From the IMG/VR virus record IMGVR_UViG_3300026138_000017, positions 1 to 30,315 of that record: DNA of 30,315 nt. The stretch is one strand, 5' to 3'. The DNA comes from a virus (Duplodnaviria; Caudoviricetes). Shown in pieces: positions 1,864 through 27,367 of the stretch (position 1 is the first letter of the stretch; each line of letters starts with the position of its first letter). The position numbers and the translations under genes are program-made. The notes under the pieces are model-generated. The model ran no database searches, was not told the origin of the DNA, and saw nothing but the letters and a program-made list of their open reading frames with translations.

Positions 1864-1919
1864 TATATAATCTATTTAAGACTGGTTGTTTAAACAGCCG
1901 GTCTTTGAGAGATTATGTA
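1864..1919 (+). repeat. Intergenic hairpin repeat copy 1 (TGTTTAAACA-centred)
   Basis: TATATAATCT..AAGACTGGT-TGTTTAAACA-GCCGGTCTT..AGATTATGTA, symmetric about 1891/1892; stem mismatches are G-U on the + strand. Confidence 0.85.
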
Positions 1920-1969
1920 ACCTTTTTACATAACTCTAGTCTAAATATAAAACACAAATAGGAGGCAAT

Positions 1970-2686
1970 ATGAAGACATTACTAGCGGAAAATCCAGTAC
2001 ACGAAGAACACTTACCTTTATTCAAGGGTAATCGTGAAACCTGGTTAAACAAAGTTGCGGATTTTATCTACGACAAAATCAACGAAGAGTTCGTTCCGGT
2101 TGTTCCAAGAGAAAATATTAGATTATCCATCGGCTTTATGCCGGGTGGTGTTAAAGGTTCAGCTATCGGTGTATGTCACTATGAAACACACAGCACTGGA
2201 AATTATAGAGAAATCTTTATCAAGCCTACATTAGGTGCAAGTAATTTAGCAGAATGTATTGAAACAGCCCAGGTTGTTGCCCACGAGGTAACACACGCAA
2301 TATTACCATCGGGTACTGGACACAATGCAAAATTCTCTAAAGTTATCAAATCTTATCTAGGTGCAGAGGGTAAGCCAACAGCAACTATTGCTGGACCAAG
2401 GTTCACTCTTATGATACAAGACTTTATCCAGGAGTTAGGATACCTTCCACACTCTAAGATGGTAGAAGATACCAAGGGTAAAGGTTCAACAACAGTAGCA
2501 GTTAGATGCACTGGTGCAGAAACTTGCCCTGGTGCTAGCGACAAATCATTAACACAAGGTTGGGGACTTATTGCAAGAGTATCAATCGCAGTATTCAGAA
2601 AAGTTGGTGACAACTTCAGATGTATGGCTTGCGGTTCATCCACAGTTGTAGAGTTACCGGAAAACTTACGCAAAGATTATGCCTAA
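1970..2686 (+). CDS. SprT-like zinc metalloprotease with C-terminal Cys cluster
   Basis: VAHEVTHA (HExxH) followed by GHNAKF, typical of SprT-like proteins; C-terminal CTGAETC...CMAC; SD AGGAGG. Confidence 0.7.
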   Translation: MKTLLAENPVHEEHLPLFKGNRETWLNKVADFIYDKINEEFVPVVPRENIRLSIGFMPGGVKGSAIGVCHYETHSTGNYREIFIKPTLGASNLAECIETAQVVAHEVTHAILPSGTGHNAKFSKVIKSYLGAEGKPTATIAGPRFTLMIQDFIQELGYLPHSKMVEDTKGKGSTTVAVRCTGAETCPGASDKSLTQGWGLIARVSIAVFRKVGDNFRCMACGSSTVVELPENLRKDYA

Positions 2687-2735
2687 GTATCTAGCTAGAG
2701 CTGGCTGTTTAAACAGCCAGCTTTATGGTAGATAT
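2687..2735 (+). repeat. Intergenic hairpin repeat copy 2
   Basis: GTATCTAGC-TAGAGCTGGC-TGTTTAAACA-GCCAGCTTTA-TGGTAGATAT; begins directly after the stop codon. Confidence 0.85.
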
Positions 2736-2771
2736 CATAAGGATATTTACAAAACTATATAGGAGGCCCAA

Positions 2772-3095
2772 GTGAGCAAAAGTGACAAAGAAAATGCAAG
2801 AATTGCTAGAACAGCAATAGCTAACATATTCAACAACGATGACCTACAAGGAGTTTATGACCTACTCAAAGAGAGATGGGACTTAAACACAAAACAACAG
2901 GTAAATCAGTTCAATGAGTTAGACCTTGTAGATGTTAAGTTCAGTGATGGACAAGTGCTTAGAGCTAGAGTAGAAAAAGTTAATAAGAAAACAGTTAGTG
3001 TAATCATATTAGAAAAATACCAAGGCACAAAGTATAAAGTATCACCGAAATACTTAACTAAAGTTACAGAAGAAATGCTACAAGAGCAAGCATAA
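2772..3095 (+). CDS. Hypothetical protein, possible SH3/KOW-like C-terminal barrel
   Basis: GTG start with SD AGGAGG; beta-rich pattern GQVLRARVEKVNKKTVSV...YKVSPKYL. Confidence 0.7.
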   Translation: MSKSDKENARIARTAIANIFNNDDLQGVYDLLKERWDLNTKQQVNQFNELDLVDVKFSDGQVLRARVEKVNKKTVSVIILEKYQGTKYKVSPKYLTKVTEEMLQEQA

Positions 3096-3142
3096 TTAGT
3101 TAGGACTGGTTGTTTAAACAGCCAGTCTTATAGTAAATATGC
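3090..3142 (+). repeat. Intergenic hairpin repeat copy 3
   Basis: GCATAATTAGT-TAGGACTGGT-TGTTTAAACA-GCCAGTCTTA-TAGTAAATATGC. Confidence 0.85.
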
Positions 3143-3169
3143 AAACACAAATATAAAAGGAGGCACAAT

Positions 3170-3598
3170 ATGCAACAGTATATTGTTCAGGCTAGATGTA
3201 TGTTCAGTGGCTACACCGATGTAGCTAGTGTTCAAGCAGATAGCGCAAAAGATGCAGTAAAGAAATGGAGTGATGACCAATTCAATATTGCAGGAATTAT
3301 AACGAGTGTGAGATATGGTAAAGTTATTGCTTGCAAACTGGAACATTTTAAGCCAGGCAATGTAAAAGCAGACAACGCACCAGTCAACACAGCAAAGATG
3401 GGTAGTGATGAGAGAGCTTATGGTATTCCTTATTCACAAGCTAGTAAGGAGGACAAGAAAGTTGTTAGAGAAATCATAGAGGCAGACAACGAACAGTTCA
3501 AGTTCGCCAAAGCTAACAATGTAGAAGTCAACGACACCTACTGGGATGAAGATGACAAACTACAAGTGAGAGATGCTAACGAAGCCCCGCCATTCTAA
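3170..3598 (+). CDS. Hypothetical early protein
   Basis: ATG with SD AAGGAGG; acidic C-terminus ending EAPPF. Confidence 0.75.
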   Translation: MQQYIVQARCMFSGYTDVASVQADSAKDAVKKWSDDQFNIAGIITSVRYGKVIACKLEHFKPGNVKADNAPVNTAKMGSDERAYGIPYSQASKEDKKVVREIIEADNEQFKFAKANNVEVNDTYWDEDDKLQVRDANEAPPF

Positions 3599-3649
3599 GA
3601 TACCTAGCTAGACCAGGTTGTTTAAACAGCCTGGTTTATGGTAAGTATC
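3599..3649 (+). repeat. Intergenic hairpin repeat copy 4
   Basis: GATACCTAGC-TAGACCAGGT-TGTTTAAACA-GCCTGGTTTA-TGGTAAGTATC; begins directly after the stop codon. Confidence 0.85.
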
Positions 3650-3686
3650 ACAAGGATATTTACAGACACAGTTAAAAGGAGGCAGT

Positions 3687-4040
3687 GTGATAAATGGTAA
3701 AGATATTGTTCAAGTATGGACTAGCGATGGCCGAAATAACAATTCGGTATGGTGCGAAACAAGTGATGGACAATACTACAAAATAAAAGCTAGCGAGTTA
3801 TTAAAGAGTTTACAAACAGTAGATACTTTTAATACAAAGCTAGCAAGGAAACATACATACTTAGAAATAAGTAGTGAAGATGTGAAACACAATCCAGGTT
3901 TTTCATCTATTGATACAGAAGAGTTAGATAGTGCTTGTGAAGTTATGTTCGGCCATTCAGACTGGGAGTTCGTAGCAGACACAGATAAATATATCACTAT
4001 CAAATTTAATGTAGAAGATACACAAGAGGAGGAAGAATGA
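3687..4040 (+). CDS. Hypothetical acidic early protein
   Basis: GTG start with SD AAGGAGG; ATGA overlap with the next gene. Confidence 0.75.
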   Translation: MINGKDIVQVWTSDGRNNNSVWCETSDGQYYKIKASELLKSLQTVDTFNTKLARKHTYLEISSEDVKHNPGFSSIDTEELDSACEVMFGHSDWEFVADTDKYITIKFNVEDTQEEEE

Positions 4041-4591
4041 GCGACCATTCAAGAGATGACCAACAAAAAGTTGCGGAACAATTCAAAGCAGACTTAGAAT
4101 TAATCCAAGATTATTTGAGGGTACAAAAAGAACAAGACTTGCGAGAAGAGCAAGACATAGAAGTTAGGTTCTTCAGCGAAGTCTTCTGTGATATGAAGGT
4201 GACTAGCAGAGTTCAACAAGAATTTGAAATCAGAGAAGAAAACCTTCATTGCAATCACTATGGATGCGAGGAGATGCTATCAATAGAAGTTCATTCAAGT
4301 GATGGACAGATAGGAATAGATAACATTACCTGGAATTGGGATGATGCAAAAGATGAAATGATACCAGTATTCGGTGCGGAAATTATTTACCTGGACCGAA
4401 GTAGATTAGCAGAAGGCAATGTTGTAAGGGGTATGGTGTACAAGACTATCAAGGAGATAGACATACCATTCAAGCGAGCCTGGTTAGAAGACACCAACTT
4501 GCAAGCAGTATTGGACTATCTAAAGAGCGGAGAGTTCCTTACCTGGATGCGACTACTAAGCGACACAACACACAAAGTACCAATCAACTAA
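4037..4591 (+). CDS. Hypothetical early protein
   Basis: 184-aa ORF, SD GGAGG, coupled to the upstream gene. Confidence 0.75.
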   Translation: MSDHSRDDQQKVAEQFKADLELIQDYLRVQKEQDLREEQDIEVRFFSEVFCDMKVTSRVQQEFEIREENLHCNHYGCEEMLSIEVHSSDGQIGIDNITWNWDDAKDEMIPVFGAEIIYLDRSRLAEGNVVRGMVYKTIKEIDIPFKRAWLEDTNLQAVLDYLKSGEFLTWMRLLSDTTHKVPIN

Positions 4592-4607
4592 CACGCCCAA
4601 TAGGGTA

Positions 4608-4667
4608 AGACATTCTAGGGTTGGGTGCCTCCGGCCCTAGCTTGTCTAGTTGTTTAAACAGGAGGCA
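4608..4667 (+). ncRNA. Candidate hairpin/pseudoknot RNA element
   Basis: Stem AGACA..CTAGGGTTGG/CCGGCCCTAG..TGTCT; TGCCTCC (4626-4632) is complementary to GGAGGCA (4661-4667); TGTTTAAACA at 4651-4660. Confidence 0.45.
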
Positions 4668-4682
4668 AAACTTAAACAGTTA

Positions 4683-4711
4683 TTGACAATAATTCAATAG
4701 CCGTATAAGAT
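4683..4711 (+). promoter_or_regulatory. Sigma70/SigA-type promoter
   Basis: TTGACA (4683-4688), 17 nt, TAAGAT (4706-4711), followed by SD AAGGAGG and ATG 4742. Confidence 0.75.
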
Positions 4712-4741
4712 AGTATAAAAAAAATAATAGAAGGAGGAATA

Positions 4742-4942
4742 ATGTTAAGTATTCAAGGATTAATAATTATGTTTATGTTCGGGGTGGCTGTGACACTAAC
4801 CATATCAGCAATGTGGTTGATGTATGCCGAATATAGAATAGCAAAAGAAGAAATTAAGAGAGCAAATAAGGAAAGATTATCCAAAGATTTTATGGATAAT
4901 TTTTTCAAAAGAAATGGAGATAATGATGAAGGACAATCCTAA
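4742..4942 (+). CDS. Small membrane protein (single N-terminal TM helix)
   Basis: Hydrophobic residues 3-28 followed by a charged tail; strong SD. Confidence 0.75.
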   Translation: MLSIQGLIIMFMFGVAVTLTISAMWLMYAEYRIAKEEIKRANKERLSKDFMDNFFKRNGDNDEGQS

Positions 4943-5240
4943 AGTAATATCTATTTGTACGAAGTTCAATCTAAAAACATCCACCCAAGGTGATGTTAAG
5001 TGGATTATGTTCGACAACAAAGAAGAAGCTATAGAAAAACAAACCACTGGTGAGCTAGATGAGCCAACAGTTTTACAACACTTTGATATTGTTGGTAAGA
5101 CAGACCAAGGATTTGTTTTAAAACTACAAGAAGGAATAGAAATAAAAGCAGTAGAGGTTAAAGAAAACCCTATTGATGAACACGACTTATACCAAGATAG
5201 GCAAGAGTATAGAGCGAGAATGAATGAGGATGGAGGATGA
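4914..5240 (+). CDS. Hypothetical protein
   Basis: Fits operon packing; the true start may be ATG 4923/4926 after GGAGA. Confidence 0.65.
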   Translation: MEIMMKDNPKVISICTKFNLKTSTQGDVKWIMFDNKEEAIEKQTTGELDEPTVLQHFDIVGKTDQGFVLKLQEGIEIKAVEVKENPIDEHDLYQDRQEYRARMNEDGG

Positions 5241-5479
5241 TAGAGCAAGAAGTACTAGAGTTAGAAATATTACTGCGTAAATTACAAGGTAGATTAAACG
5301 CAGTTAATACAGCTTTAGTAAACACAAATAGAAAAAGTGATGTGAGTACTTTGATACACACGCAAGAAAAACTTCACTCCAATATAAAAGTAGCAGAATT
5401 AGAAATCGATATTGCTAAAAAACAAATAGAGATAGACAACATATTAAAACAATATGAAGTGGAAGGAAGTAATAAATAA
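5237..5479 (+). CDS. Hypothetical coiled-coil protein
   Basis: ATGA overlap, SD GGAGG, heptad Leu/Ile pattern. Confidence 0.7.
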   Translation: MIEQEVLELEILLRKLQGRLNAVNTALVNTNRKSDVSTLIHTQEKLHSNIKVAELEIDIAKKQIEIDNILKQYEVEGSNK

Positions 5480-5529
5480 AATAGTTAATCAATACTTGTT
5501 TAATATTCAACAGGTGTTAACATAATGTT

Positions 5530-5685
5530 ATGAAATACATTGTAAAATGTGTAAGTTTATTAGACAACAGCACTATGCAATGGGAGTTTAACGACTTAGG
5601 TAGAGCTAAGGAACAAATAAGACACCTTCAAGACCTAGGTGCAAACACTCAGTTGATAAACTTATACGAAACAATAACAGTCTAA
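5530..5685 (+). CDS. Small hypothetical protein (51 aa, MKYIVKCVSLLDNSTMQWEF...), probably leaderless
   Basis: Hand translation; fills the gap; TG-T-TAACAT (-10 at 5518-5523) 6 nt before the ATG. Below the ORF-track size cutoff. Confidence 0.6.
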   Translation: MKYIVKCVSLLDNSTMQWEFNDLGRAKEQIRHLQDLGANTQLINLYETITV

Positions 5686-5705
5686 CGACTAGAAAGAGGT
5701 GGAGT

Positions 5706-5924
5706 ATGGCCCAAGGCCTTAACTTTAAAGACCCTAAAACAATTAGAAATTGGAGTATTAATTTAGCTAACGCTTGTGGTGGTGCAGAAGTAAGACCCGC
5801 AGGCCCAAGATTAAACAAACCAAATCCAGTATTAGCCAACGCATTACTGGAACAATTCGCACAAGCATATAACGCATTAGTAAAGGAAGGAACAGAAGAT
5901 GCCGGAGAGCAAGAAGAAGAGTAA
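5706..5924 (+). CDS. Hypothetical protein
   Basis: SD GAGGTGGAG; operon packing. Confidence 0.7.
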   Translation: MAQGLNFKDPKTIRNWSINLANACGGAEVRPAGPRLNKPNPVLANALLEQFAQAYNALVKEGTEDAGEQEEE

Positions 5925-6108
5925 AGTTCTAACACTAGAAGTTCTAGTAGAAGATGAAACTTTATATCAAAGAACAGCAGAACAACGACAAAATTTTCTA
6001 GTCGGATACATAAGCAGTATCCCTGGATGCACAGTTGTAGATGCAAAAGTAGAAGATGCGGAGGTGATTAGCATTGACAACAAAAGAACAGTTGATGGCG
6101 ATAAATAA
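5899..6108 (+). CDS. Hypothetical protein
   Basis: SD AGGAAGG; short overlaps with both neighbours. Confidence 0.6.
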   Translation: MPESKKKSKVLTLEVLVEDETLYQRTAEQRQNFLVGYISSIPGCTVVDAKVEDAEVISIDNKRTVDGDK

Positions 6109-6295
6109 TCTTCGTGGAATACAACACGAACTAAACAGATTAGACACGCAAAAGAACATTAACTTAGAAGTAAGAAAAAATTATATTGCTAGTTGTTTAA
6201 ACAGTGGCGTAAAAGTCAAGCAGGTTGCTGACATTTTAGGTATTAGTTTAGCAAGAGTATATAAGATTATGGAAGAGGTGAAGGTAAATGCCTAA
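6074..6295 (+). CDS. Helix-turn-helix DNA-binding protein
   Basis: GVKVKQVADILGISLARVYKIM is a classic HTH signature; TTG start after SD GGAGGTG. Confidence 0.8.
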   Translation: MTTKEQLMAINNLRGIQHELNRLDTQKNINLEVRKNYIASCLNSGVKVKQVADILGISLARVYKIMEEVKVNA

Positions 6296-6503
6296 GCCAA
6301 TACAAAAGAACCCAGCATATAAAGTGTTCGGTAAAGGTTACGCTTGCCGACACCACAAGAAACACAATATAAATTGCAAACCATATAAGAAATGGGATAC
6401 GAACTATTGTGACTTTGAAACTTGGTGGGAGTTTTGTATGAAGAGTAAAAACGCAAAGAAAAACTTTTTACGATATCGTAAAGAAGTTGGAATAAGGAGA
6501 TAA
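6288..6503 (+). CDS. Small basic Cys/His-containing hypothetical protein
   Basis: SD GAGGTG; operon packing. Confidence 0.6.
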   Translation: MPKPIQKNPAYKVFGKGYACRHHKKHNINCKPYKKWDTNYCDFETWWEFCMKSKNAKKNFLRYRKEVGIRR

Positions 6504-6505
6504 GA

Positions 6506-7453
6506 ATGGATGAAAAAATCCTAAAAGCACTGATAAAGAATTTCTCTAAGGATGTAGTTAAAGATGCACCTAAAGGAAAATTCGGTAAGTATGTTCCGCA
6601 TCACATTGTGACACAGCGGTTAGTAGATGTAATCCCTGGAGGTTATGACTTCACATACGAAGAAGTAAGAGGCAAAGATAATGCGATAGTCGGGGCCAAG
6701 TGCAGACTATACATTAAAGCAACAGACCAAACTATAGAAGAAGTAGGTGATGTTGATAAGCACGCACTGGAGAGAAACACTGAAAGTGAGATATTAAAAC
6801 TTGCAGTTAGTGATGGTATCAAAAGATGTGCGATGAGAATAGGCCTTGGACTAGAGCTATGGACCGGTGGAGTTACTGAAGAAGAGTTCTATGCACAAGG
6901 TGATGCACCAGTGCAAGAACCTAAAGCAGAACCAAAGCCAAAGCCAACACCTAAACCTAAGACTGAAGAGAAGTTCTTAGATGAGGACCCAGCAGATATG
7001 CTTAACAGATTACGCAGTGCCTTAGAGTTTCACGAGGCTGACAAAGCAGTAAGAAAACATATTAAGGACAAGGCTTGGGCTGACTGGAAGAAGGCCGATA
7101 ACAAACTTGACATAGGTGAATGGAATGAGCAAGACTTTAATAACTTTATGGACTTGTTCGTGCAATACCAGGAGGCTGAGAAACAACAAGATGACACTGA
7201 ACTTGTTAAAGAAGTATTCGGTGAAGTTGAAGAGAAGGTTGTTAGAAAATGCCCTAAGTGTGACAAGGCTGACAACATTGCAGACAATAGAGAGAAGAAG
7301 GCTAACGCACCGGAAGGTAGCGGTATAAAAAGAATACCGGATTTTAGTTGTGAAACTAATGACCCAAAGTGGAGGCCGGATGCTAACGGATGTGGTTGGG
7401 GAGGATACATCGGTGGTAGTGGTGACAAGGAAGTTCCCGAAGGATGGGCCTAG
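6506..7453 (+). CDS. Rad52/Sak-like single-strand annealing protein with Pro/Lys linker and C-terminal Zn-ribbon-like domain
   Basis: YVPHHIVTQRL...LKLAVSDGIKRCAMRIGLGLELW matches the Rad52/Sak pattern; C-terminal CPKC...PDFSC...GCGW. Confidence 0.8.
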   Translation: MDEKILKALIKNFSKDVVKDAPKGKFGKYVPHHIVTQRLVDVIPGGYDFTYEEVRGKDNAIVGAKCRLYIKATDQTIEEVGDVDKHALERNTESEILKLAVSDGIKRCAMRIGLGLELWTGGVTEEEFYAQGDAPVQEPKAEPKPKPTPKPKTEEKFLDEDPADMLNRLRSALEFHEADKAVRKHIKDKAWADWKKADNKLDIGEWNEQDFNNFMDLFVQYQEAEKQQDDTELVKEVFGEVEEKVVRKCPKCDKADNIADNREKKANAPEGSGIKRIPDFSCETNDPKWRPDANGCGWGGYIGGSGDKEVPEGWA

Positions 7454-7752
7454 AAAACCCATCCATCTCTATCGGTAAGCTAAAGGATAAGTTAAAAAAG
7501 AAATACCCCAATCATAACTTTGACATAGCATCTTTACCGGATACTAAGTGTAGGTTCCCTCATAGATGTAGGCAAGGACAACCAGTTTATTATGACAAAG
7601 ATGAAAACTATTTTTGTGCAGTAATGGACAAGGTTGTGACTGACTTAGGTTCTATGAAAAATGAATTACAAGGATGCAACGCATACCTGGTAGAACTTAC
7701 ACAAAGAAAACAAGAGGAGAAGAAAAGAGATGGTAATACCCCTATTTTTTAA
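7444..7752 (+). CDS. Hypothetical Cys-containing protein
   Basis: Overlaps the upstream stop; operon packing. Confidence 0.65.
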   Translation: MGLENPSISIGKLKDKLKKKYPNHNFDIASLPDTKCRFPHRCRQGQPVYYDKDENYFCAVMDKVVTDLGSMKNELQGCNAYLVELTQRKQEEKKRDGNTPIF

Positions 7753-8161
7753 ATGGATATTACCCCTATGTATCTATCCAGTTGGAGAGATGCCTAGTGA
7801 TATAAACCTCTACGCCACTTGTTTAAACAATGTAGAGAAGATAGAAAATGTAATTGAGTGGGAACCTCTTATAAGCAAACACTTTAAAGAAGAAGATGTT
7901 TCGGAGGTTCTCACCATTATATTCTGTGAAAGTTCGGGCCGTGCTGATGCGGTCAATGACAACACAAATGGAACTAGAGATGTAGGACTGTTTCAATTCA
8001 ATGATGATACCTGGAACTGGCTTACACCCAAACTAAAGATTACTAGCCCAAGGACTGACCCAGTTATATCTACTAAGGTAGCATCCTGGTTATGGTATAA
8101 CGATGGTAAGCACCATTGGAATAGTAGCGGACAATGTTGGAGGAACGATGCCGAAGAATAA
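7730..8161 (+). CDS. Lytic transglycosylase (SLT/lysozyme-like fold) with hydrophobic N-terminus
   Basis: CESSG (catalytic Glu), DVGLFQF motif and a C-terminal GKHHW; SD GAGGAG. Confidence 0.85.
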   Translation: MVIPLFFKWILPLCIYPVGEMPSDINLYATCLNNVEKIENVIEWEPLISKHFKEEDVSEVLTIIFCESSGRADAVNDNTNGTRDVGLFQFNDDTWNWLTPKLKITSPRTDPVISTKVASWLWYNDGKHHWNSSGQCWRNDAEE

Positions 8162-8570
8162 AGACTACGACATAAACACACAAAAGTTTCACGATGACCT
8201 TAAAAAAGGTGAAGAGATGGAGGAACTATTTAAAGAGTTTATGTTAGGTAAAAACATAGAAGTAAAAAGCGAGAGGCATATATGGGAGAACACACGAAAC
8301 CATTTCGTTGAGTATGCTTATAAGCCTATCGGTAAAGATGAGTGGGAACGCAGTGGTATAGCGGCTACCAAATCCGAATACTGGTGTGTATTTCTTGTTG
8401 ATGAGTTAGAAAATCCTGTCATTGCTTATATTGTTAGAGTTGCTGACCTTAAAAAAATAGTAAGTAAATATCTACAATCCAAAAGGGATGTGGTCGGTGG
8501 CGATGGTAATAGAAGTAAAGGAGTATTGGTGCCCATTGATGAGATAGCAGGTCTAGCCTTTAAAAGCTAG
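8148..8570 (+). CDS. Putative PD-(D/E)xK-fold nuclease-like protein
   Basis: FHDDLKKGEEME...IEVKSE...NHFVEY...SGIAATKSEYW pattern; start moved to ATG 8148 after SD GGAGG. Confidence 0.55.
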   Translation: MPKNKDYDINTQKFHDDLKKGEEMEELFKEFMLGKNIEVKSERHIWENTRNHFVEYAYKPIGKDEWERSGIAATKSEYWCVFLVDELENPVIAYIVRVADLKKIVSKYLQSKRDVVGGDGNRSKGVLVPIDEIAGLAFKS

Positions 8571-8585
8571 GCCTGGCCTACCTGT

Positions 8586-9776
8586 TTAAACAATGACTGG
8601 AAAGCTAGGACCCCTGTCGTTTATTAATAATGTAAGAACCCCTGGATGTGACCACAACCCTGTTCTTTGTGTAAAGTCTATACTCTTATCTATAGATGGA
8701 CATTGAAACCAGTGTCTATCACCTTGTGTCTTAGCACGAAAATGATGGTAATGGCCTGTGACTAATATCTTCGCATCACCCGATGGTAAGAACCCATACA
8801 TCTGACCCTTCCACCAGTTCTCTATTTTGTTTTCTGCATTCCCACTGCCCGAACTCATATGGCCGTGAGTAAAAGCACAAGGCACACCTTTTATATCTAA
8901 GTTTAAGTGATAACCCTCCGGAACTATTACCTCTACCTTCTTATATCTCTCCGGATTAGCTTTAAATATCTCATCCATTATTTGTATATGCATAGTATCA
9001 CTGTTATCTAAACGATTAGATAGCACTTGACCCTTAGAACTTCTTGTCATTTCTCCGTGATTGCCTGGAACACCAGTAAGAACTATCTTATCTGCGTGAG
9101 GTAAGAAGTTTTCTACTGCTTTGAATATCATTGCCCTGGCTAATGCGTATTGTTCTAAGAGATTGAGAGAAACATTGTGTGGTTGACTGTCGTAAAAGAA
9201 TTTACTGCACCCTTCTGTGAGGTCACCCATTCCTATTAAGTAAATCTCATCTATCTTCATACCCATTTTTCTGTAGTTCTTTAGTAGTTGCAACCCATCT
9301 TGTAAAGCAACATCAAATCTTTTGACTGTGTTTTCTACACCATAGTCATCTTTACCTAATTGGAAGTCGGCAAGGAAAAAGCAGAATGCAGTGTCACCCT
9401 TAAAGATATTATGCTTCGGTAGTGGTGGCTTCTTAACTGCTTGTTTAAACAATTCCTTGTAATACTTATCTCTTGATAAATTTTTTCTACGAATTGTACC
9501 TTTGAATGCATAAAATGTTTCAACCCTACCACCTTTAAGTTGTGCATTCCAGGAAGATACTTTTAAGATACCATCTATCTCATACTCTTTAGGATTAAAT
9601 CCCCACTTCTTTAGTATGTTGTCGTAGTTATTGTGGTAGTTCTTATCAGTAGTGACTTCTGTTATTTCACCCCTGTTTGTTTCGTGATTAAATTCAGCGT
9701 TAGGTTTCCATCCGGCTTTGTAAAAGTTATTACTATTCTCTACCGGTATCCCCTTCTCTTGTTTCTTTTTAGGCAA
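8586..9776 (-). CDS. Calcineurin-like metallophosphoesterase (Mre11/SbcD-like superfamily)
   Basis: Motifs ADFQLG, GDLTEG, GNHG, HGH and GHYH in canonical order; TTG start after SD GGAGGTGG. Confidence 0.85.
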   Translation of the reverse strand: MPKKKQEKGIPVENSNNFYKAGWKPNAEFNHETNRGEITEVTTDKNYHNNYDNILKKWGFNPKEYEIDGILKVSSWNAQLKGGRVETFYAFKGTIRRKNLSRDKYYKELFKQAVKKPPLPKHNIFKGDTAFCFFLADFQLGKDDYGVENTVKRFDVALQDGLQLLKNYRKMGMKIDEIYLIGMGDLTEGCSKFFYDSQPHNVSLNLLEQYALARAMIFKAVENFLPHADKIVLTGVPGNHGEMTRSSKGQVLSNRLDNSDTMHIQIMDEIFKANPERYKKVEVIVPEGYHLNLDIKGVPCAFTHGHMSSGSGNAENKIENWWKGQMYGFLPSGDAKILVTGHYHHFRAKTQGDRHWFQCPSIDKSIDFTQRTGLWSHPGVLTLLINDRGPSFPVIV

Positions 9777-9799
9777 GTTCCACCTCCAGTTTTCTTGCT

Positions 9800-9820
9800 T
9801 GTTTAAACAAGTATATAACA
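9800..9820 (-). promoter_or_regulatory. -10 element (TATACT, 9815-9810) with a TGTTTAAACA palindrome over the predicted start site
   Basis: CTTGTTTAAACAAG at 9798-9811 lies between the -10 element and the SD of the phosphoesterase gene. Confidence 0.5.
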
Positions 9821-9851
9821 GATATTGAAAAACACTGGTATTTAAATTAAA

Positions 9852-10061
9852 TTATTTAGATACTTTAGTTGCTGGTTTTTTACCTATTTGTTTCTTAGCG
9901 AACTCTTTAACTACAACTAATGCAGCCGCACCACCGGATAAGGCGGCAAGCTGAAGAGCATCAGCATCAACACCAACTAATGGTGCTACTGTAAGTGCTG
10001 ATATAAAGGCCTCAACGAATGTCCAAATAGTTTTTTCCAAAACTTCTTTATATTCTTTCAT
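9852..10061 (-). CDS. Holin (r1t-like/actinobacteriophage type)
   Basis: EKTIWTFVEAF pattern, two hydrophobic segments, basic C-terminus, directly downstream of the endolysin. Confidence 0.75.
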   Translation of the reverse strand: MKEYKEVLEKTIWTFVEAFISALTVAPLVGVDADALQLAALSGGAAALVVVKEFAKKQIGKKPATKVSK

Positions 10062-10660
10062 CTTATTAGATTTCCTAACTTTAATTTATTTTCTATGTTC
10101 TCTAGTTTAGCAATAATTATAGCAAGTTTTTTATCTGTGTTCATCTTAGTAGTTGCTTGACTTGTTTTTTGTGAAGAAGTGTGTTCAATAATCCACTGCC
10201 TCCAGGCATCACCAGGGCAAGCTGTTTGTTTAAACGATGAGTGAGGTCTTAGTTCTCCACCGACTTGTTCGTATAGCCACTCAATAGATTTAATAGCTTT
10301 ATCTGAAGGTTTGTCGGTAGGTTCTGCACCACCAAGCCAACACACAGCAACATAATGCTTGTTATTGTAGTTAATCTCTTGCCTATTGTTACCACCTTGG
10401 GCCGCACTTCTGTTACCAAATCCTCTGCCTTCATAAATCTGTCCTGTATCTCCTACTAAAAAGTTGTATGCTACATCATTCCAACCTCTATCTACTTGAT
10501 GTAGTCTTTGTATTGTCTTACACTGGTCCATCTCTGCTTGATTACCTACTGCTTTAGGATAAGCAGACCAATGGATTACCAGTCCTTTGATATCTCCTAG
10601 CTTACTAAACTTAGTCTTGTTAGGTTTAGCACCCCAGCTATCTCTTCTTATTATTTCCAC
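10058..10660 (-). CDS. Endolysin, N-acetylmuramoyl-L-alanine amidase (Amidase_2/PGRP-like)
   Basis: IIRRDSWGA, VIHWS, RGWNDVAYNFLV..GQIYEGRG, PHS...TACPG; probable GTG start at 10660 (the track start at 10708 overlaps the small upstream ORF). Confidence 0.9.
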   Translation of the reverse strand: MEIIRRDSWGAKPNKTKFSKLGDIKGLVIHWSAYPKAVGNQAEMDQCKTIQRLHQVDRGWNDVAYNFLVGDTGQIYEGRGFGNRSAAQGGNNRQEINYNNKHYVAVCWLGGAEPTDKPSDKAIKSIEWLYEQVGGELRPHSSFKQTACPGDAWRQWIIEHTSSQKTSQATTKMNTDKKLAIIIAKLENIENKLKLGNLIR

Positions 10661-10733
10661 AGTTATCACTTCCACCTTTGCAGTTACACAACTGCACAAA
10701 TGAACCATCTTCTTTTACTTCTACTTTACACAT
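10638..10733 (-). CDS. Small Cys-rich peptide (31 aa, MCKVEVKEDGSFVQLCNCKGGSDNCGNNKKR)
   Basis: Hand translation; fills the gap; TAGAAT -10-like hexamer 6 nt before the ATG. Confidence 0.5.
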   Translation of the reverse strand: MCKVEVKEDGSFVQLCNCKGGSDNCGNNKKR

Positions 10734-10742
10734 AGTTATATT

Positions 10743-10946
10743 CTAGCCACCCATTTTAAATAACAGTTCAGTAAAGTTACTTTCTAACATATCAAGTTCA
10801 CTATTCATCTCTAATACCATAGCATCACAAGCGTTTTGATGTGATTTAATTTCTTCTATGGAGTTGAATACCCAACCAAATGCACTAAGCAAAGCTGTTA
10901 TAACTATTGGTGCTAGTGTCTTTGTGTCTATCTTTAATGTTGCCAT
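10743..10946 (-). CDS. Small membrane protein with coiled-coil tail (lysis region)
   Basis: TM segment LAPIVITALLSAFGWVF followed by heptads. Confidence 0.7.
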   Translation of the reverse strand: MATLKIDTKTLAPIVITALLSAFGWVFNSIEEIKSHQNACDAMVLEMNSELDMLESNFTELLFKMGG

Positions 10947-11074
10947 TTAATTTTACAACTATCTCCACAATCATCTGTAAATTCTTGTGATGTATCTACG
11001 AATATAGGATTATCTGTAAACATATCTTCAGGTAACTGAAATGTTTCTATATGTAACTCACTCATTTTTCCCAT
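10934..11074 (-). CDS. Small acidic hypothetical protein (46 aa, ...DDCGDSCKIKWQH)
   Basis: Hand translation; tiles between its neighbours. Confidence 0.5.
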   Translation of the reverse strand: MGKMSELHIETFQLPEDMFTDNPIFVDTSQEFTDDCGDSCKIKWQH

Positions 11075-11077
11075 TGT

Positions 11078-11254
11078 TTACATTACAATCGCTGCAACAA
11101 CTCCACCAAGTGCTACAAGTAGCGTTAATACTTTATAAAATTCTGCTTTGTCTAACTTTTGGTCCAACTTCTCTTCAATCTTTTCAAGTTTCTCAAATAT
11201 CATTTGATTTAATTCCTTCTGTGTATATCCGTTACTTGATTTTGAAGTGGCCAT
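11078..11254 (-). CDS. Small coiled-coil protein with C-terminal TM helix (58 aa)
   Basis: MATSKSSNGYTQKELNQMIFEKLEKIEEKLDQKLDKAEFYKVLTLLVALGGVVAAIVM; TAATG coupling. Confidence 0.7.
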   Translation of the reverse strand: MATSKSSNGYTQKELNQMIFEKLEKIEEKLDQKLDKAEFYKVLTLLVALGGVVAAIVM

Positions 11255-11412: not shown

Positions 11413-11429
11413 AAATAAGATTATACCAC

Positions 11430-12086
11430 TTAATAGTTACGATTGCGATTATACCCGTAATCAAATACTGAAGTTAATTCTAACCTAGACTTCCTATGTC
11501 TTGACCACCAGTATTTATTCATAGCCCATATTCTTTGTTTGGTTTTATCCCTCTTGTAAGGTATGTACATACAAAGAGGTTGTCCTTGCTTGATAATTAC
11601 TTCTTGTTTAAACAACATAACCTGTTGATTGTTTTCGTGGTGCTGGTCTGAATATATAATTCCAGGCAATACTTCCCAGTCGGGATTGAAATGATAATAC
11701 ATAGGCAACTGCATAACACTCCATCCTGGAGGTGTAAAGGTTAGCCAGGGTGATATCGCTTTAAAAATACCATAGTTATTTTTGGGTATATGATTACTAA
11801 ATTGTCCATCTCCGTGTATCTCCCAGGTAAATAAACTATTTGCAGTTTCCCAATGGTACTCATCACCATCTCTTGTTAGCTTGCTATCACACCACATAGG
11901 TATAACATAAGCTAGTTTAAACAAATCAACGAAGCTAGGGCATTGTTTAGCTGTCTTACCTCCGTTCATTTTTGCTGGTAACTGGCTAAACCAAGGAGGT
12001 AGATACTCCATTGCAGGTTTAGGTTTGCATATCTCAATGTTTTCTAATTCCGGAACTGCTGATACAAAATCTATCTTAGGTTTCAT
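11430..12086 (-). CDS. DUF6065-like protein (paralogue 1)
   Basis: KQCPSFVDLFKLAYVIPMWCD, PWLTFTPPGWS, LPGIIYSD, IIKQGQPLCMYIP; clearly paralogous to 12596-13330. The family name is from recall. Confidence 0.65.
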   Translation of the reverse strand: MKPKIDFVSAVPELENIEICKPKPAMEYLPPWFSQLPAKMNGGKTAKQCPSFVDLFKLAYVIPMWCDSKLTRDGDEYHWETANSLFTWEIHGDGQFSNHIPKNNYGIFKAISPWLTFTPPGWSVMQLPMYYHFNPDWEVLPGIIYSDQHHENNQQVMLFKQEVIIKQGQPLCMYIPYKRDKTKQRIWAMNKYWWSRHRKSRLELTSVFDYGYNRNRNY

Positions 12087-13330: not shown

Positions 13331-14519
13331 ATATACCTTCTTCGTGTATTTTTTTATACATACCTAATCCATTTAGATTTTGAAACCAAGAATGTAACAA
13401 CCATCCACCACCAGTAAAACCTAACTCATAATTATCTTTACGCCAGTCAAACTGTTCGCTATGTATTATGTTCTTCCATATATTTTCACTCGCATTGTTT
13501 AAACAAGCAGTGCCTTGTTCTTCTGCATACTTCCAAAATGGTGTATCCCATTTACTACCTGCTGCATAATGCACCATAATAATTACTTCAGCCTCTTGTA
13601 ACCAGTTGTCATATAACTGTTGCGAGTGAAATGGTCTTTGTCCTTTATGCAACCAGTCATAACTATGCCTATTTACTTTATCTATCATCTCTATAGTTGT
13701 AGCCTCTAATGGTTCCAGGAAAAAAGATGCGTTGCCGTTGTATGCGAATTTTCTATTACCATCTAATATTAGGTAATTATCTTTACGCCAATAGTTTTTA
13801 AAAGAAAAACTATTTACATCAGAACTTAACTCTACTTCTAACTCATTAGATAGTTCTTCTAAATCTTTTGCTATCTCTTCCTCTGTGTTAAATGTGTTGT
13901 TGTACAAATAACCTAAAGATAATCTGTTAGCTAATGGTATTCCAAATACCCAGCCGTATGGTCTAGCTATACATAATGTGTAATCTATTGATGGATTATC
14001 CCAATACACTTGTTGTACATAAACTGAATTAACTGATATGTATTGTGGTATGTGGAACTCATCGTTTAATTCTTTAGGTGAACCGCTACAGTCCATAATT
14101 AAATCTGCATCTATATCTTTAGGATTGACTTTTTTATCTATGTAATTAATGTTGGGCCTTGTACTTAACTGGTCTTTTACAAACTCTTGTAACTTTAAAG
14201 CATTAAAATGCAATGACATATAAGGCATATGAAACTCGTGTAAGTAATCGTATGCATTATATTTTTGCTTACCCCAATTAATGTAATGTATTGCTCTTTT
14301 ATAATTACCATCAATGATTGGTAAGTTAGCATAACTAAAATCAAATGCATCTTTTAACAATAAAGGTAAGGATAACTGCGAACCTTCACCTACTGCTGCC
14401 TCTTGTACAGAACTATCGTAATAAATATCTATATCATAATTAGACCAAGCAGAAAAATGCATTGCAGATATAGCACCTGCTGTTCCTTTACCTACTATTG
14501 CTATTTTATTTGATGACAT
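13317..14519 (-). CDS. Flavin-dependent (tryptophan) halogenase family protein
   Basis: IVGKGTAG (FAD-binding), VGEGS, NYKRAI (Lys at the expected catalytic position), DCSG, GWVFGIP (variant of WxWxIP), FLEPLEAT. Confidence 0.85.
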   Translation of the reverse strand: MSSNKIAIVGKGTAGAISAMHFSAWSNYDIDIYYDSSVQEAAVGEGSQLSLPLLLKDAFDFSYANLPIIDGNYKRAIHYINWGKQKYNAYDYLHEFHMPYMSLHFNALKLQEFVKDQLSTRPNINYIDKKVNPKDIDADLIMDCSGSPKELNDEFHIPQYISVNSVYVQQVYWDNPSIDYTLCIARPYGWVFGIPLANRLSLGYLYNNTFNTEEEIAKDLEELSNELEVELSSDVNSFSFKNYWRKDNYLILDGNRKFAYNGNASFFLEPLEATTIEMIDKVNRHSYDWLHKGQRPFHSQQLYDNWLQEAEVIIMVHYAAGSKWDTPFWKYAEEQGTACLNNASENIWKNIIHSEQFDWRKDNYELGFTGGGWLLHSWFQNLNGLGMYKKIHEEGIYGKA

Positions 14520-16986: not shown

Positions 16987-16989
16987 TGT

Positions 16990-17763
16990 TTAAACAAAGG
17001 CCTGTAATGCGTTTATATATAAATCACCTTCATATGTTAATACACCTACTATATCTATTCCCGATGCAGTTTGTGCATAAACATTACCATTAGCGTGCTT
17101 AGGTGTTTTAGATACGCCATCTATTTCCCAGGATAATGCTGCTGTTCCTGTAGTATTTTTCAGAATAAATGTTGCATTTTCTAATAATGAACTATCAACA
17201 TTTGTTAAGTTTAATGTTACTGTTCCTTGTATGTCTGCTTCAAATACATTGTGTGCCTCTAAATCACAATCTGTAGTACCAGTAGTTAAAGCACCAAGGT
17301 CCGAAACCTTCTCTTCAAAACCTGCAAGTTTAGGTTGTGTAAGTTCGTTACCATCAAAATCTACAGTACCAGTCATAGTTCCACCGGATTTAGGAAGTGC
17401 TGCGTTTGCAGTTGTTTGTGCATTTGTTGATAAAGTTTGTGCATCACTAATATGTTCGGCTAATACAGCAAGTCTTACTATTGTACCTACTTGGTGTGTT
17501 GGTAAACTTGCGTGCCTACCTTCTAAATCTCTTGTTATAGCAGTAAAAGAAGTACCCGAAGATGCAGTTACAGATACAACTTCTCTGTTAGCAGAGTTAT
17601 CCGGGTCCATAACTAAATATATAGGGCTACTAACTGATGCATTAATTACAGTAGTACCATCTGTTGTTGGTGCTGTAACTACTGTTGTACTAGCAGGAGT
17701 AGCACCTGTTAGTATTGATGCTAAGGTGCTTTCATAAAAGTTTACTATTTGACTTGTAGCCAT
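16990..17763 (-). CDS. Minor tail/tail fibre protein
   Basis: Thr/Ser/Ala rich; ALPKSGGTMTG fibre-type repeat; TAATG coupling. Confidence 0.7.
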   Translation of the reverse strand: MATSQIVNFYESTLASILTGATPASTTVVTAPTTDGTTVINASVSSPIYLVMDPDNSANREVVSVTASSGTSFTAITRDLEGRHASLPTHQVGTIVRLAVLAEHISDAQTLSTNAQTTANAALPKSGGTMTGTVDFDGNELTQPKLAGFEEKVSDLGALTTGTTDCDLEAHNVFEADIQGTVTLNLTNVDSSLLENATFILKNTTGTAALSWEIDGVSKTPKHANGNVYAQTASGIDIVGVLTYEGDLYINALQAFV

Positions 17764-22130: not shown

Positions 22131-22174
22131 TTTAATCTCCTAAATTTCTTGTTTAGGAGGCTTATTCTCCTAAA

Positions 22175-22624
22175 CTACTTTTTGTCCAACTCGTTAAGAG
22201 CCTTCATTTTAGAAGCTATGCTATCTCGCACCCTACCAGTTTCTTGTGCTTGTGCAATTTGGTCCCGAATTCCTGGGGAACCCGACACGGCTTGTGCTTG
22301 TGCTGCAAGGTTGTCTAATCTTTCCTGCCCTGCGTTGACTGTTTCACGAAAACTGTCTTGTTGCCCAAATACTTCTTCACCAAATTCTTCAGATATAAAT
22401 GCTTTTAAAGCATCTGCTGAAGTATCGCCTTCGTACATTTGGTCGGCTGCTTTACCAATTCCTTTTGACCTATCTAAACCTATTTGTTTAAACAACTCAT
22501 CTCGTTCCTGGGTCTGATACTTTATCAGTTCTTCTTTGAGGGTTTTATTCTCCTCACGAATTGCCTTCCAGTTTTTATCTTCACCAGTATTGGTTTCTAC
22601 GCTTGCTTCTTCGTTTTGTGACAT
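22175..22624 (-). CDS. Capsid scaffolding protein (putative)
   Basis: Acidic, helical, 149 aa, immediately upstream of the MCP; SD GAGGAGG. Confidence 0.7.
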   Translation of the reverse strand: MSQNEEASVETNTGEDKNWKAIREENKTLKEELIKYQTQERDELFKQIGLDRSKGIGKAADQMYEGDTSADALKAFISEEFGEEVFGQQDSFRETVNAGQERLDNLAAQAQAVSGSPGIRDQIAQAQETGRVRDSIASKMKALNELDKK

Positions 22625-22638
22625 TGCTGTCCTCCTCT

Positions 22639-22777: not shown

Positions 22778-22783
22778 GTATTA

Positions 22784-22810
22784 ATTATAACACAACTTGT
22801 TTAAACAAGT
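22784..22810 (-). promoter_or_regulatory. Capsid-operon promoter: extended -10 TGTGTTATAAT with the 16-bp perfect palindrome ACTTGTTTAAACAAGT directly upstream
   Basis: TATAAT at 22789-22784; palindrome at 22795-22810. Confidence 0.7.
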
Positions 22811-22812
22811 AG

Positions 22813-25208: not shown

Positions 25209-26946
25209 CCTCCTGTTCTAATTCTTCAGTGAGATTACTAAATATTATATCATACACTGGTTTACTTATTTTATAACTAATAGAATACTTGTCACTTACT
25301 TCACCAAAGTTATCCCAAAAGCCTTCATCAGTTGTTCTTGCTTGATAAATAGCATTTGATATATCTCCTAGCAGTAATGCAGTTTCATATCCTGCATAAG
25401 CTAAAGCAAGTGGTCCAGTTGCACCAGCTACACCTATTCTTCCTAACGCAGGTAATACTGCTTTAGTAATTACCTGGTCCCCAATGTCTAGTTTTTCTAA
25501 CACACTAAATACTTTTTTAAATACACCAGGGTTTTTATTCATAATCTGTTTGGCTTTATTTAAATTTTCTACACCATCTGATTTAGATATAACATTATCT
25601 ATATCATCTACTACATTTGTAGGTGTGTCTATAGATTTATTTAAATCTTCTACTAATTGGTCGGGTGTTATATATCGTGGGTCATATGGTAAATCTTCCT
25701 TTACATCATTAATACTTATGCGGTTTAATTTTTCTCGCATATCATCATCAATACGATTTTCGTATATGTTCATACTTACATAATCAGCAATAAATTCACC
25801 AGCAGTTAGGTTTTTAGATGCATTTATATCTTTAGCAAAATTTGGGTCAAGAGTAACATCGTATGCTTTTCTACCTGCTATTTCCTGGAACCTATTCATA
25901 TATGTTTTATTAATTTGAAATGGTAAATCTGTATCTATTCCATCAAACACTTTAAAGCTGGTAGTAAACTGTGCTGGTTCTTTAGTGCTAAATATCATAT
26001 CACCAAATGCATCTCTCATTGGGTCCACTATTGACCCCATATTGACAAACATTCTTTCAACATCAGAATTGTGTGTTGATTGAAAAATTGTTGATGGTGT
26101 GTTCTTGAAGTTTATATATCTTTCTTGTAAATCAGTCATTTCTTCAAAGAAATATTTTATTTGATTTTTTACTACTTGTGCATCATTAGGTACATTTTTA
26201 TAAAGTAAATCTCCAGGGTCCCTTGTAATCCATAATTCATCTAATACATCAACCCTAAATACTTCTGCTATGTCATCATCTAAATTATCTATTTGGTCGT
26301 GCAACTCTATAAGCTGTATCGTAAATGGCCTTACACCTTCAGTAGATGGGAATGTAGCATACATTTGATATAGCTCATTAGCTCGTATATCATCTAAAAC
26401 TCTTACTTTTAATTCAAGACTGTTTGATAAGTCCTCAACTTTTATGTCACTATCCATTAATGCTTCACTGGTTTCTGTCAATATTGTTTTTATATCCCAG
26501 CCATCATCACTAACTGAAGGTATCTCTAAACCAAAATCATTAGATAATTCCATTGCAATATCGTAGACAGCTTCACTTGTTTCATCGTATCCAGTCCATA
26601 AAAAATCCGGTAGTGTCAAATCACCTAAAGTTTCTGTTTCTTCAAATGCTTTATAATTTTCTAATGCATAGTCAATAAGAGTTTCCAGTCTTATTTTTCC
26701 CATATTGCTATCTATTTTGTTAGTGTGATTAAACAATACACTTGTGTGTGTTGTGTATGCATCTCCTGGAGTTCCTTGTATAAGATTAGAGATAATACTC
26801 ATACGCCAGTCCTCTGCGTTTTTCATATAAAAGCCATCAACTGTTTTAAAATTTTCGGGATTACCGAACTTTATAGCATCATTAATAACTGATTTAATAG
26901 CATCAGTTATCATTTGAACTTCTCTAATACCTAGTTCAACTGACAT
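25171..26946 (-). CDS. Large acidic hypothetical protein with a C-terminal hydrophobic Gly/Ala segment (putative ejection protein)
   Basis: 591 aa; AVLPALGRIGVAGATGPLALAYAGY segment near the C-terminus. Confidence 0.5.
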   Translation of the reverse strand: MSVELGIREVQMITDAIKSVINDAIKFGNPENFKTVDGFYMKNAEDWRMSIISNLIQGTPGDAYTTHTSVLFNHTNKIDSNMGKIRLETLIDYALENYKAFEETETLGDLTLPDFLWTGYDETSEAVYDIAMELSNDFGLEIPSVSDDGWDIKTILTETSEALMDSDIKVEDLSNSLELKVRVLDDIRANELYQMYATFPSTEGVRPFTIQLIELHDQIDNLDDDIAEVFRVDVLDELWITRDPGDLLYKNVPNDAQVVKNQIKYFFEEMTDLQERYINFKNTPSTIFQSTHNSDVERMFVNMGSIVDPMRDAFGDMIFSTKEPAQFTTSFKVFDGIDTDLPFQINKTYMNRFQEIAGRKAYDVTLDPNFAKDINASKNLTAGEFIADYVSMNIYENRIDDDMREKLNRISINDVKEDLPYDPRYITPDQLVEDLNKSIDTPTNVVDDIDNVISKSDGVENLNKAKQIMNKNPGVFKKVFSVLEKLDIGDQVITKAVLPALGRIGVAGATGPLALAYAGYETALLLGDISNAIYQARTTDEGFWDNFGEVSDKYSISYKISKPVYDIIFSNLTEELEQEDEGFIPQYTYGR

Positions 26947-27032
26947 TATTCCTCTTCAGATTTTTTAGATTGTTCCTTCATCTGTCTAAGTTCTTCAGCT
27001 ATTTCTTCAATAGTTTTCATTTTAACTGACAT
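26946..27032 (-). CDS. Small charged peptide (28 aa, MSVKMKTIEEIAEELRQMKEQSKKSEEE)
   Basis: Hand translation; starts 2 nt after the upstream stop; TAATG overlap with the next gene and supplies its SD (GAGG). Confidence 0.55.
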   Translation of the reverse strand: MSVKMKTIEEIAEELRQMKEQSKKSEEE

Positions 27033-27034
27033 TG

Positions 27035-27367
27035 CTATTCACCTTGTATTCTTTTAACCATCTCTAATAATGATTGAGCTTCTTCATTTTGTGGAAACTG
27101 TGTATTAGGTGGTTCGCTCTCTAACATACCTGCTCTAGCTAGAGCTTCTTTTGTAGGTCCACCTCCACCTTGTGCAAGTCTATTAACTATAGTTTTTAAA
27201 TCATAAGGGCTATCCTTTACCGATGACATAAATTTAAGCAATGAATAATAGCTTTTAGCTGGTTGTTTAAACAATGAGTTTTTAGCTTGTGGTTCCGGCC
27301 TTCTAGGAAACTTAGTGTTTGGAGTAGGCATTGGGTCCACTGATGTTTCTGTATTATTTTCTTCCAT
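27035..27367 (-). CDS. Hypothetical Pro-rich protein
   Basis: TAATG coupling; internal repeat PNTKFP/PNTQFP. Confidence 0.65.
   Translation of the reverse strand: MEENNTETSVDPMPTPNTKFPRRPEPQAKNSLFKQPAKSYYSLLKFMSSVKDSPYDLKTIVNRLAQGGGGPTKEALARAGMLESEPPNTQFPQNEEAQSLLEMVKRIQGE

Follow-up and report, generated by a model that had tools for sequence, protein, structure and literature searches.

The genome fragment and its relatives

We analysed a window of 30,315 nucleotides, corresponding to positions 1 to 30,315 of the IMG/VR virus record IMGVR_UViG_3300026138_000017 (Duplodnaviria; Caudoviricetes), in which a short palindromic word, GTTTAAAC, is iterated and which carries a gene for a SprT-like protease (Table 1). 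The window is a fragment of an actinophage-like genome of about 41 kb, and its complete relatives have this size and carry terminal repeats. According to Pfam and PHROG, its genes include those for an SU10-type capsid (about 30% identical to actinophage capsids), an amidase, a holin, an exonuclease and an annealing protein, and only 2,971 of the 30,315 bases are non-coding. DNA of the window occurs mostly in runs labelled estuary, and in some labelled marine, freshwater or soil; two RNA runs contain only 5-7% of its sequence words. It was compared with 43 virus records and one metagenome-assembled genome (MAG), most of them retrieved via the capsid and two via the SprT-like gene; 24 of the virus records are at least 90% complete and 19 are less complete.

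The iterated word and its selection

The original prediction had described 16 exact copies of a 10-bp palindrome, TGTTTAAACA. All 16 lie at the positions reported, and the whole window holds no further copies. The accompanying estimate of well below one copy per 30 kb also holds, as the mean is 0.13 and the maximum 2 in 100 dinucleotide shuffles, and 0.11-0.31 copies are expected under Markov models of orders 0-4; the runner-up 10-bp palindrome has three copies. Where four one-mismatch copies had been listed, there are in fact six (the additional ones at 2042 and 26726), and these are not enriched as a class, the shuffle mean for at most one mismatch being 4.1. Two of them, at 10227 and 11914, retain an intact core GTTTAAAC. 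The real unit is this 8-mer, with 18 copies in the window. The 10-mer was rejected as the unit, as relatives conserve the 8-mer with looser flanks, and TGTTTAAACA is the window lineage's own version of the word. A suspected resemblance to the parS consensus in its outer arms was set aside once the core was recognised as an 8-mer.

Seven of the 18 cores are intergenic, two lie over stop codons (8584 and 16988, within the copies at 8583 and 16987, as previously noted) and nine lie within genes. Coding sequences contain more cores than their codons would provide: the nine observed compare with a mean of 1.23 and a maximum of 6 in 2,000 synonymous shuffles, and under the same null seven copies of the 10-mer compare with a mean of 0.61 and a maximum of 5. 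TTG, which makes up 10% of leucine codons, is used in all five LFK[QL] contexts containing the core, and the SFKQ context with the core uses TCG (4% of serine codons). Since in-gene copies are built with rare codons and exceed the synonymous null, amino-acid or codon usage was ruled out as their cause. A comparison of 42 related loci, which are not independent, gave 139 alignments of orthologous sites, and the site is intact in 110 of them; for control 8-mers the figure is 10,922 of 56,696 (19%). Four sites have no aligned ortholog, and just 2 of 22 relatives have an intact copy at 9801. Taken together, the synonymous null and the intactness of orthologous sites argue that the word is under selection as DNA, with some turnover. 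The earlier claim of a DNA-level site is thus borne out, and protein binding is its best reading. In population contigs covering positions 1800-14000, only 40 of about 600 differences were visible, too few for judging site conservation; one such variant alters flank base 1896.

Table 1. Copies of the word in the window and features of the SprT-like gene
Feature	Position	Strand	Remarks
Two TGTTTATACA variants (1228, 1269), left non-coding region	1228..1278		possibly weak sites; one relative has TGTTTATACA at the autoregulatory position
TGTTTAAACA site in long dyad	1887..1896		core 82 bp upstream of SprT-like gene, 3' of TATAAT; likely autoregulatory operator (predicted)
SprT-like zinc metalloprotease with C-terminal four-cysteine zinc ribbon, 238 aa	1970..2686	+	first gene of rightward early arm; proposed reader
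HExxH...H catalytic motif (H105, E106, H109, H118)	2282..2323	+	invariant in 131-sequence alignment
C-terminal zinc ribbon (C180, C186, C218, C221; R203)	2477..2644	+	predicted DNA-reading module; part of predicted dimer interface
Site, repeated early intergenic cassette, long dyad	2706..2715		directly past SprT-like stop codon
Site, repeated early intergenic cassette, long dyad	3111..3120
Site, repeated early intergenic cassette, long dyad	3619..3628
Intergenic site	4651..4660		upstream of TTGACA-17-TAAGAT promoter-like element (4683-4711); without long dyad
Site within helix-turn-helix (HTH) gene (C-L-N codons)	6194..6203		intact in 14/14 aligned relatives
Site within SLT-like gene (C-L-N)	7820..7829		intact 13/15
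Site over exonuclease stop codon, where two gene arms converge	8583..8592		intact 17/17
Site within exonuclease gene (L-F-K-Q, TTG)	9442..9451		intact 23/23
Intergenic site upstream of exonuclease gene	9800..9809		directly 3' of TATACT hexamer; intact in only 2/22 relatives
Core GTTTAAAC within amidase gene (S-F-K-Q, TCG)	10228..10235		intact 3/6
Site within phrog_7084 gene	11605..11614
Core GTTTAAAC within phrog_7084 gene	11915..11922		same gene as site 11605
Site within tryptophan-halogenase-like gene (C-L-N)	13496..13505
Site over stop codon of gene 16990-17763	16987..16996
Site within gene directly upstream of major capsid gene	22485..22494		intact 9/12
Intergenic site upstream of capsid operon	22798..22807		9 bases before TATAAT; intact 12/12
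Site within gene 27035-27367	27264..27273		intact 3/3

A SprT-like gene tracks the word among relatives

The product of gene 1970-2686 matches phrog_6361 (E 8.5e-22). Among the 24 relatives that are at least 90% complete, the 12 with a phrog_6361 gene carry 15-34 sites, while the 12 without it carry 0-2. The 19 less complete records comprise six with the gene (4-31 sites), ten with neither gene nor sites, and three with 9-14 sites and no gene. When protein families were built from 1,773 open reading frames of 30 genomes, the SprT-like family was the only one present in 12 of 12 site-rich and 0 of 12 site-poor genomes; the runner-up scored 11/12 versus 1/12, and no methyltransferase-like family tracked the word. 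The HTH protein encoded at 6074-6295, put forward earlier as a candidate reader, was rejected, as only 8 of the 12 genomes rich in the motif have its gene, which is also found in 3 of the 12 that are poor in it. On the capsid tree the trait requires seven changes (the three gene-less fragments being counted as negative), and two supported pairs of sisters differ in both gene and sites, namely G077 (24 sites, gene) versus G076 (one site, no gene) and G069 (20 sites) versus G073 (two sites).

The gene itself is usually preceded by the word, with a site at most 150 bp upstream in 17 of 23 cases. In relative G004 a one-base variant stands at the upstream position, and in the cultured phage Crosby the site falls just inside the annotated start. 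The annotated start of Crosby gene 76 (L207:46251-46976) is probably too far upstream, and its annotated 5' end contains a TTGCAC hexamer, the site and a TACCTT hexamer.

Word and protein vary together in distant phages

The bases flanking the core differ with the type of SprT-like protein. Directly beside the core, A takes the first flanking position in 243 of 252 half-sites of genomes with a window-type protein, in 284 of 366 with the G003 type and in 14 of 40 for G069; relatives have sites in common, so that these counts overstate independence. G077 and G093 combine a distant capsid with a window-type protein and strict flanks, and flank strictness thus follows protein subtype, not capsid. 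The G069 protein (L151:11884-12807) has an insertion of about 35 residues in its zinc ribbon, and none of the 20 cores of that genome has both T/A flanks.

The family extends well beyond these relatives: 2,395 clusters at 50% identity match its profile, and about 150 cultured-phage records carry the annotation 'SprT-like protease' (152 with a homolog). We examined 12 of these 152 records together with two relatives that lack the homolog, four of the genomes being taken as 50-kb parts. All nine cultured phages with an intact KKQxTR zinc-ribbon tail are enriched either for GTTTAAAC (observed/expected: Persinger 4/0.09, ECO1230-10 5/0.7, R5C 10/0.33, Pan1 10/0.12, Alexa 8/0.98) or for a variant, GTGTAAAC (Phives 21/0.49, Crosby 38/1.58, Caron 17/0.28, Emotion 17/0.3). 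Word copies are present in none of the three phages with an altered tail (Dismas, Coltrane, Epa5), nor in BaileyBlu and Donkey, which have no SprT-like gene. In addition, 33 of 36 viral contigs retrieved solely by two distant homologs are enriched at P<0.001; many are near-copies, and none is similar to the window at the DNA level. On sequence evidence, GTTTAAAC is a selected, phage-specific word that tracks one gene family, SprT-like, across relatives and unrelated phages alike.

Other iterated words were seen in the same cultured set. In Epa5 (L219, a 50-kb part), whose SprT homolog has a tail without cysteines, the top word is CCCTGGGC (48 copies against 7.9 expected), possibly a switched address. 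Emotion (L222) carries a second iterated word, CGTGAAAC (20 against 2.0), and Donkey (L221), without a SprT gene, has CGAGCTTC (16 against 1.4).

Predicted fold and dimer of the SprT-like protein

The window protein matches the SprT family profile PF10263 with E 2e-4 and 21.6 bits, below the curated cut-off of 25.6, which the Dismas homolog exceeds (26.5 bits); among Atlas neighbours, PF10263 is found in 24-40% of members. The HExxH motif and third histidine are present in 145 of 148 representatives, and the domain that follows the protease contains four conserved cysteines. The model of the full protein has a predicted local distance difference test (pLDDT) of 81, and its top structural matches, SPRTN, selecase and abylysin, are tied at Z 7.5-7.2 (SPRTN by VIA: Z 7.5, root-mean-square deviation 3.1, 100 aligned). 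Searching PDB sequences with the alignment gave one weak match (E 0.38). The isolated zinc ribbon was modelled with pLDDT 68 and has no fold match above Z 2.8, which neither excludes a known family nor shows a new fold.

Two copies of the protein are predicted to pair. The homodimer score is 0.52, against 0.02 for the best control; scores at this level were obtained for 20 of 30 solved homodimers and for 1 of 23 monomers. The runs show at least 90% contact agreement and pLDDT of at least 81. The predicted interface pairs both zinc ribbons (residues 200-225 of each copy) as well as the protease domains. The protein is therefore predicted to have a SprT/zincin fold and to form a homodimer, which lends support to a putative two-fold reader for a palindromic site. 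SPRTN is not known to have a sequence-specific DNA site.

Proposed mechanism

The zinc ribbon of the SprT-like protein is very probably the reader of the word. Under the complete model, which we consider moderately probable, a SprT-like dimer would bind the word, repress its own promoter and load along the genome as a protease switched by DNA. First, the paired zinc ribbons of the predicted homodimer would read the palindrome GTTTAAAC. Second, the copy ahead of gene 1970-2686 would act as an operator for autorepression, and the promoter-overlapping copies at 9800 and 22798 may tune other operons. Third, the dispersed in-gene copies would load the protease along the genome, most densely on the early arm, where DNA binding may switch on proteolysis as in SPRTN, and the protease would then remove proteins sitting on the DNA, be they host defence or silencing proteins or stalled complexes.

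A broader generalisation, to which we would give slightly less than an even chance, is that this is a widespread system in which a SPRTN-like protease has become sequence-specific. Its address would be written across the phage's own genome, so that it would be active on self DNA only and strip host defence or silencing proteins from it, and address and reader would drift together (GTTTAAAC, strict TGTTTAAACA, GTGTAAAC, or both lost).

Alternative explanations

The strongest alternative, which we nonetheless regard as rather unlikely, keeps the same reader and makes it a repressor: the sites would be operators and stoperator-like roadblocks, acting on early transcription or on the lysis-lysogeny decision, and the protease would be the switch, through cleavage of itself or of one regulator. 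The placement of sites lends it some weight. Promoter overlap, noted previously for two copies, holds by inspection, as the core at 9801 directly adjoins TATACT and, on the minus strand, TATAAT is 9 bases away from 22799. Gene boundaries are over-represented: of the 223 sites in nine genomes, 90 reach into non-coding DNA (10.9% expected), and a -10-like hexamer is close to 24 of the 90, a weak enrichment (17.6% expected, p 0.02); the recurrent site ahead of the SprT-like gene would also suit a repressor. A scan of the window found 21 promoters against 32.2 in shuffles, that is, not above shuffles, and no terminator at motif sites. Further support comes from the position of the SprT-like gene near an integrase in Persinger, Alexa and Phives, and from Cluster AZ Arthrobacter phages. 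As far as the main text of 10.1101/2025.05.26.655371 describes them, AZ phages have no identified immunity repressor, and Liebe, with a truncated SprT, forms clear plaques where Maureen forms turbid ones, although three further positions differ between the two. On the other hand, half of the window sites (9/18) and 133 of the 223 sites in relatives are inside genes. No tyrosine integrase was found in five of five near-complete relatives (serine integrases were not searched by family), and Emotion has 17 sites without an annotated integrase. Finally, the word is symmetric, and even the asymmetric variant occurs 20 times forward and 18 times in reverse in Crosby (Phives 6/15, Caron 13/4), unlike stoperators, which are oriented (PMC9283540).

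Further alternatives involve the host. The sole genome match for the capsid alignment (43%) is an Actinomycetota MAG, whose order has genomes of 0.6-1.1 Mb and a GC content of 31-34% in eight sampled stretches, traits that would fit Ca. Actinomarinales as the putative host group. The word is not a feature of these chromosomes. Across 61 genomes of the order (0.6-1.1 Mb), its copy number is 4-25, and in 60 of them it is rarer than its reversed control; 160 kb of sequence contain three copies against 3.7-5.5 expected. Moreover, phrog_6361 was found in 0 of 65 genomes of the order, and a search with the exonuclease found no host prophage. The word thus belongs to the phage, not to the inferred host chromosomes. 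Alternatively, a host protein or defence system might read the word, the SprT-like gene being a co-selected partner or an antidote retained by phages whose hosts possess such a system; this we consider improbable. What favours a host reader is the tetranucleotide ACGT, of which all 13 gene-positive genomes are almost devoid (0-5 copies, 28-50 expected), while 11 of the 12 gene-negative relatives have it at normal levels, a split that hints at different hosts; the identity of the word across distant phages points in the same direction. However, the exception, G076, avoids ACGT while having no gene and a single copy of the word, and the nine cultured gene carriers do not avoid ACGT. For these reasons the avoidance is read as host restriction pressure running alongside the word, a reading that depends, within the relatives, on one separating genome. 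A host reader also fits poorly with the recurrence of the pairing in phages of Actinomycetota, of Pseudomonadota and of a cyanobacterial isolation host, with flank preferences that track the phage protein subtype, and with BaileyBlu (no gene, 0 sites) and Emotion (gene, 17 sites), which share the host strain Arthrobacter sulfureus B-14730.

A further possibility, that the word has no reader at all and is left over from an intergenic cassette that moves or recombines, such as a recombination site or a duplicated hairpin, is very improbable. Hairpins had been claimed for the copies, and of the five early intergenic copies that were folded, four do lie in long dyads (z -4.5 to -6.6), while the fifth (4652) does not. 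Four early copies belong to a repeated cassette with long dyads, which favours this explanation, but the other 14 have nothing in common beyond the core and some adjacent bases, nine of them being built from synonymous codons in genes, and the intactness of orthologous sites far exceeds that of control 8-mers, so that a cassette origin is largely refuted for the in-gene copies. The cassette itself, 48-64 nt long, is repeated at 1873-1920, 2688-2751, 3093-3156 and 3601-3664 and places a 26-30-bp dyad and a ribosome-binding site ahead of each of the first four early genes; it could aid gene shuffling or RNA processing.

Least probable of all is the HIP1-like or methylation-driven word suggested originally, which the phage would owe to its host or to the action of a methyltransferase. 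Selection of an 8-bp palindrome within genes does recall HIP1 (PMC5861425), but the scarcity of the word in the 61 genomes of the order speaks against it, the host itself being a putative one. No N6/N4 methyltransferase (PF01555) was found in five of five near-complete relatives or, by Pfam or PHROG, among the 46 window proteins (other methyltransferase families, such as C5, and host enzymes lay outside these searches).

Several observations weigh against a DNA-addressed SprT-like protease. The third step of the model, which names no substrate, is the weakest. The relatives and contigs are not independent of one another, and one of the patterns used for retrieving the 36 contigs included the tail motif. 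For six of the 23 SprT-like genes, the 150 bp upstream are free of sites. Three incomplete records lack the gene in spite of 9-14 sites, but, as judged by alignment to the closest gene-bearing relative, they also lack the early arm and are uninformative. Microbacterium EB phages and Epa5 have an intact protease and no such word, so that the protease can apparently be kept without this address. The window-type tail, KGSTT, differs from the family tail, KQTTR, yet both share the core word, and the reading residues are therefore not simply that motif. Foldseek gave no match at E<=0.001 (best E 0.015). ACGT avoidance co-varies with the gene almost as tightly as the word does, and host lineage is a possible confounder. 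Lastly, spacing across the whole window is random (coefficient of variation 1.0, p 0.70) and in several marine relatives it is clumped; it is more even than random below 14 kb in the window (p 0.018, with a boundary chosen post hoc) and in five of eight cultured phages, which loading along the genome would predict as coverage of the DNA.

Comparison with known systems

The closest parallel in layout is provided by the stoperators of Cluster A mycobacteriophages (L5, TipsytheTRex; PMC9283540), which likewise form about 20-30 genome-wide sites for a protein of the phage itself, some of them over promoters. The number of sites is similar, with 18 in 30 kb here and 15-34 per near-complete relative. 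Stoperators, however, are asymmetric 13-mers oriented with transcription, whereas the present word is a palindromic 8-mer; they occupy promoters and short intergenic spaces, whereas 9 of 18 sites here are inside genes; and their reader is a monomeric repressor of temperate phages with two HTH motifs, rather than a predicted dimeric zinc-ribbon protease (PMC9283540). In protein architecture the parallel is SPRTN/Wss1 (PMC5127644; PDB 6mdw, 6mdx), in which an HExxH zincin domain precedes a small zinc-binding domain, in the place where the window protein has its predicted zinc ribbon. The substrates of SPRTN are DNA-protein crosslinks (PMC5127644), whereas here the protein and one exact word of the phage's own genome co-evolve. 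In our analysis, the array can thus be described as stoperator-like in layout and SPRTN-like in protein architecture.

Two other iterated palindromes share part of these properties. Cluster O mycobacteriophages, phages without an integrase, carry a comparable orphan array, with more than 30 invariant dyad sites of a 17-bp repeat, about a third of them in genes, for which a dimeric binder was predicted (PMC4351075). That repeat differs in sequence and spacing, and in the part of PMC4351075 that describes it no reader is identified and SprT is not mentioned. HIP1 of cyanobacteria (PMC4390886, PMC5861425) is also an iterated 8-bp palindrome selected within genes, but it is chromosomal and linked to a methyltransferase, whereas the word studied here is phage-borne and not iterated in chromosomes of the inferred host order, and no N6/N4 methyltransferase accompanies it in five near-complete relatives.

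Regarding the SprT-like protease of Cluster AZ Arthrobacter phages, the main text of 10.1101/2025.05.26.655371 gives no DNA target and contains 0 occurrences of GTTTAC, GTAAAC or 'palindrom', its supplements being outside the comparison. The word is not mentioned in the consulted passages of PMC7771536, 10.64898/2026.04.03.716425, PMC7824862, PMC5313236 and PMC10276819 either. No published description of the pairing was found among the matches listed by our searches, whose scope excluded most subscription journals and bioRxiv supplements. The pairing of this word with a SprT-like protein thus appears to be new; were the protein a repressor, it would be a variant of stoperator-like arrays with an unusual reader.

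For a family whose sole annotation is 'SprT-like protease', the pairing would provide a candidate function and an exact DNA target. It may also account for the lack of an identified immunity repressor in AZ phages, and it is readily testable in laboratory phages of Arthrobacter, Streptomyces and E. coli. If true, phages would have a new way of marking their own DNA, in the form of a protease with an 8-bp address, and this might also become a tool for cutting proteins at chosen DNA sites.

Other features of the window

Short palindromes are avoided in the window well beyond ACGT: CATG occurs 0 times for 117 expected and GATC 0 times for 68, CGCG is absent, and TCGA and GCGC are found twice and once, respectively. 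Of the 64 six-base palindromes, 34 do not occur at all, whereas the number of CCGG copies is 3.6-fold above expectation. No such avoidance is seen in the eight stretches of the inferred host order. PADLOC returned no hit among the early proteins (0/9). Behind the tail genes, a block at 11430-15037 contains two phrog_7084 genes, a 2OG-Fe(II) oxygenase-like gene and a tryptophan-halogenase-like gene; this block is variable among relatives, yet holds three sites.

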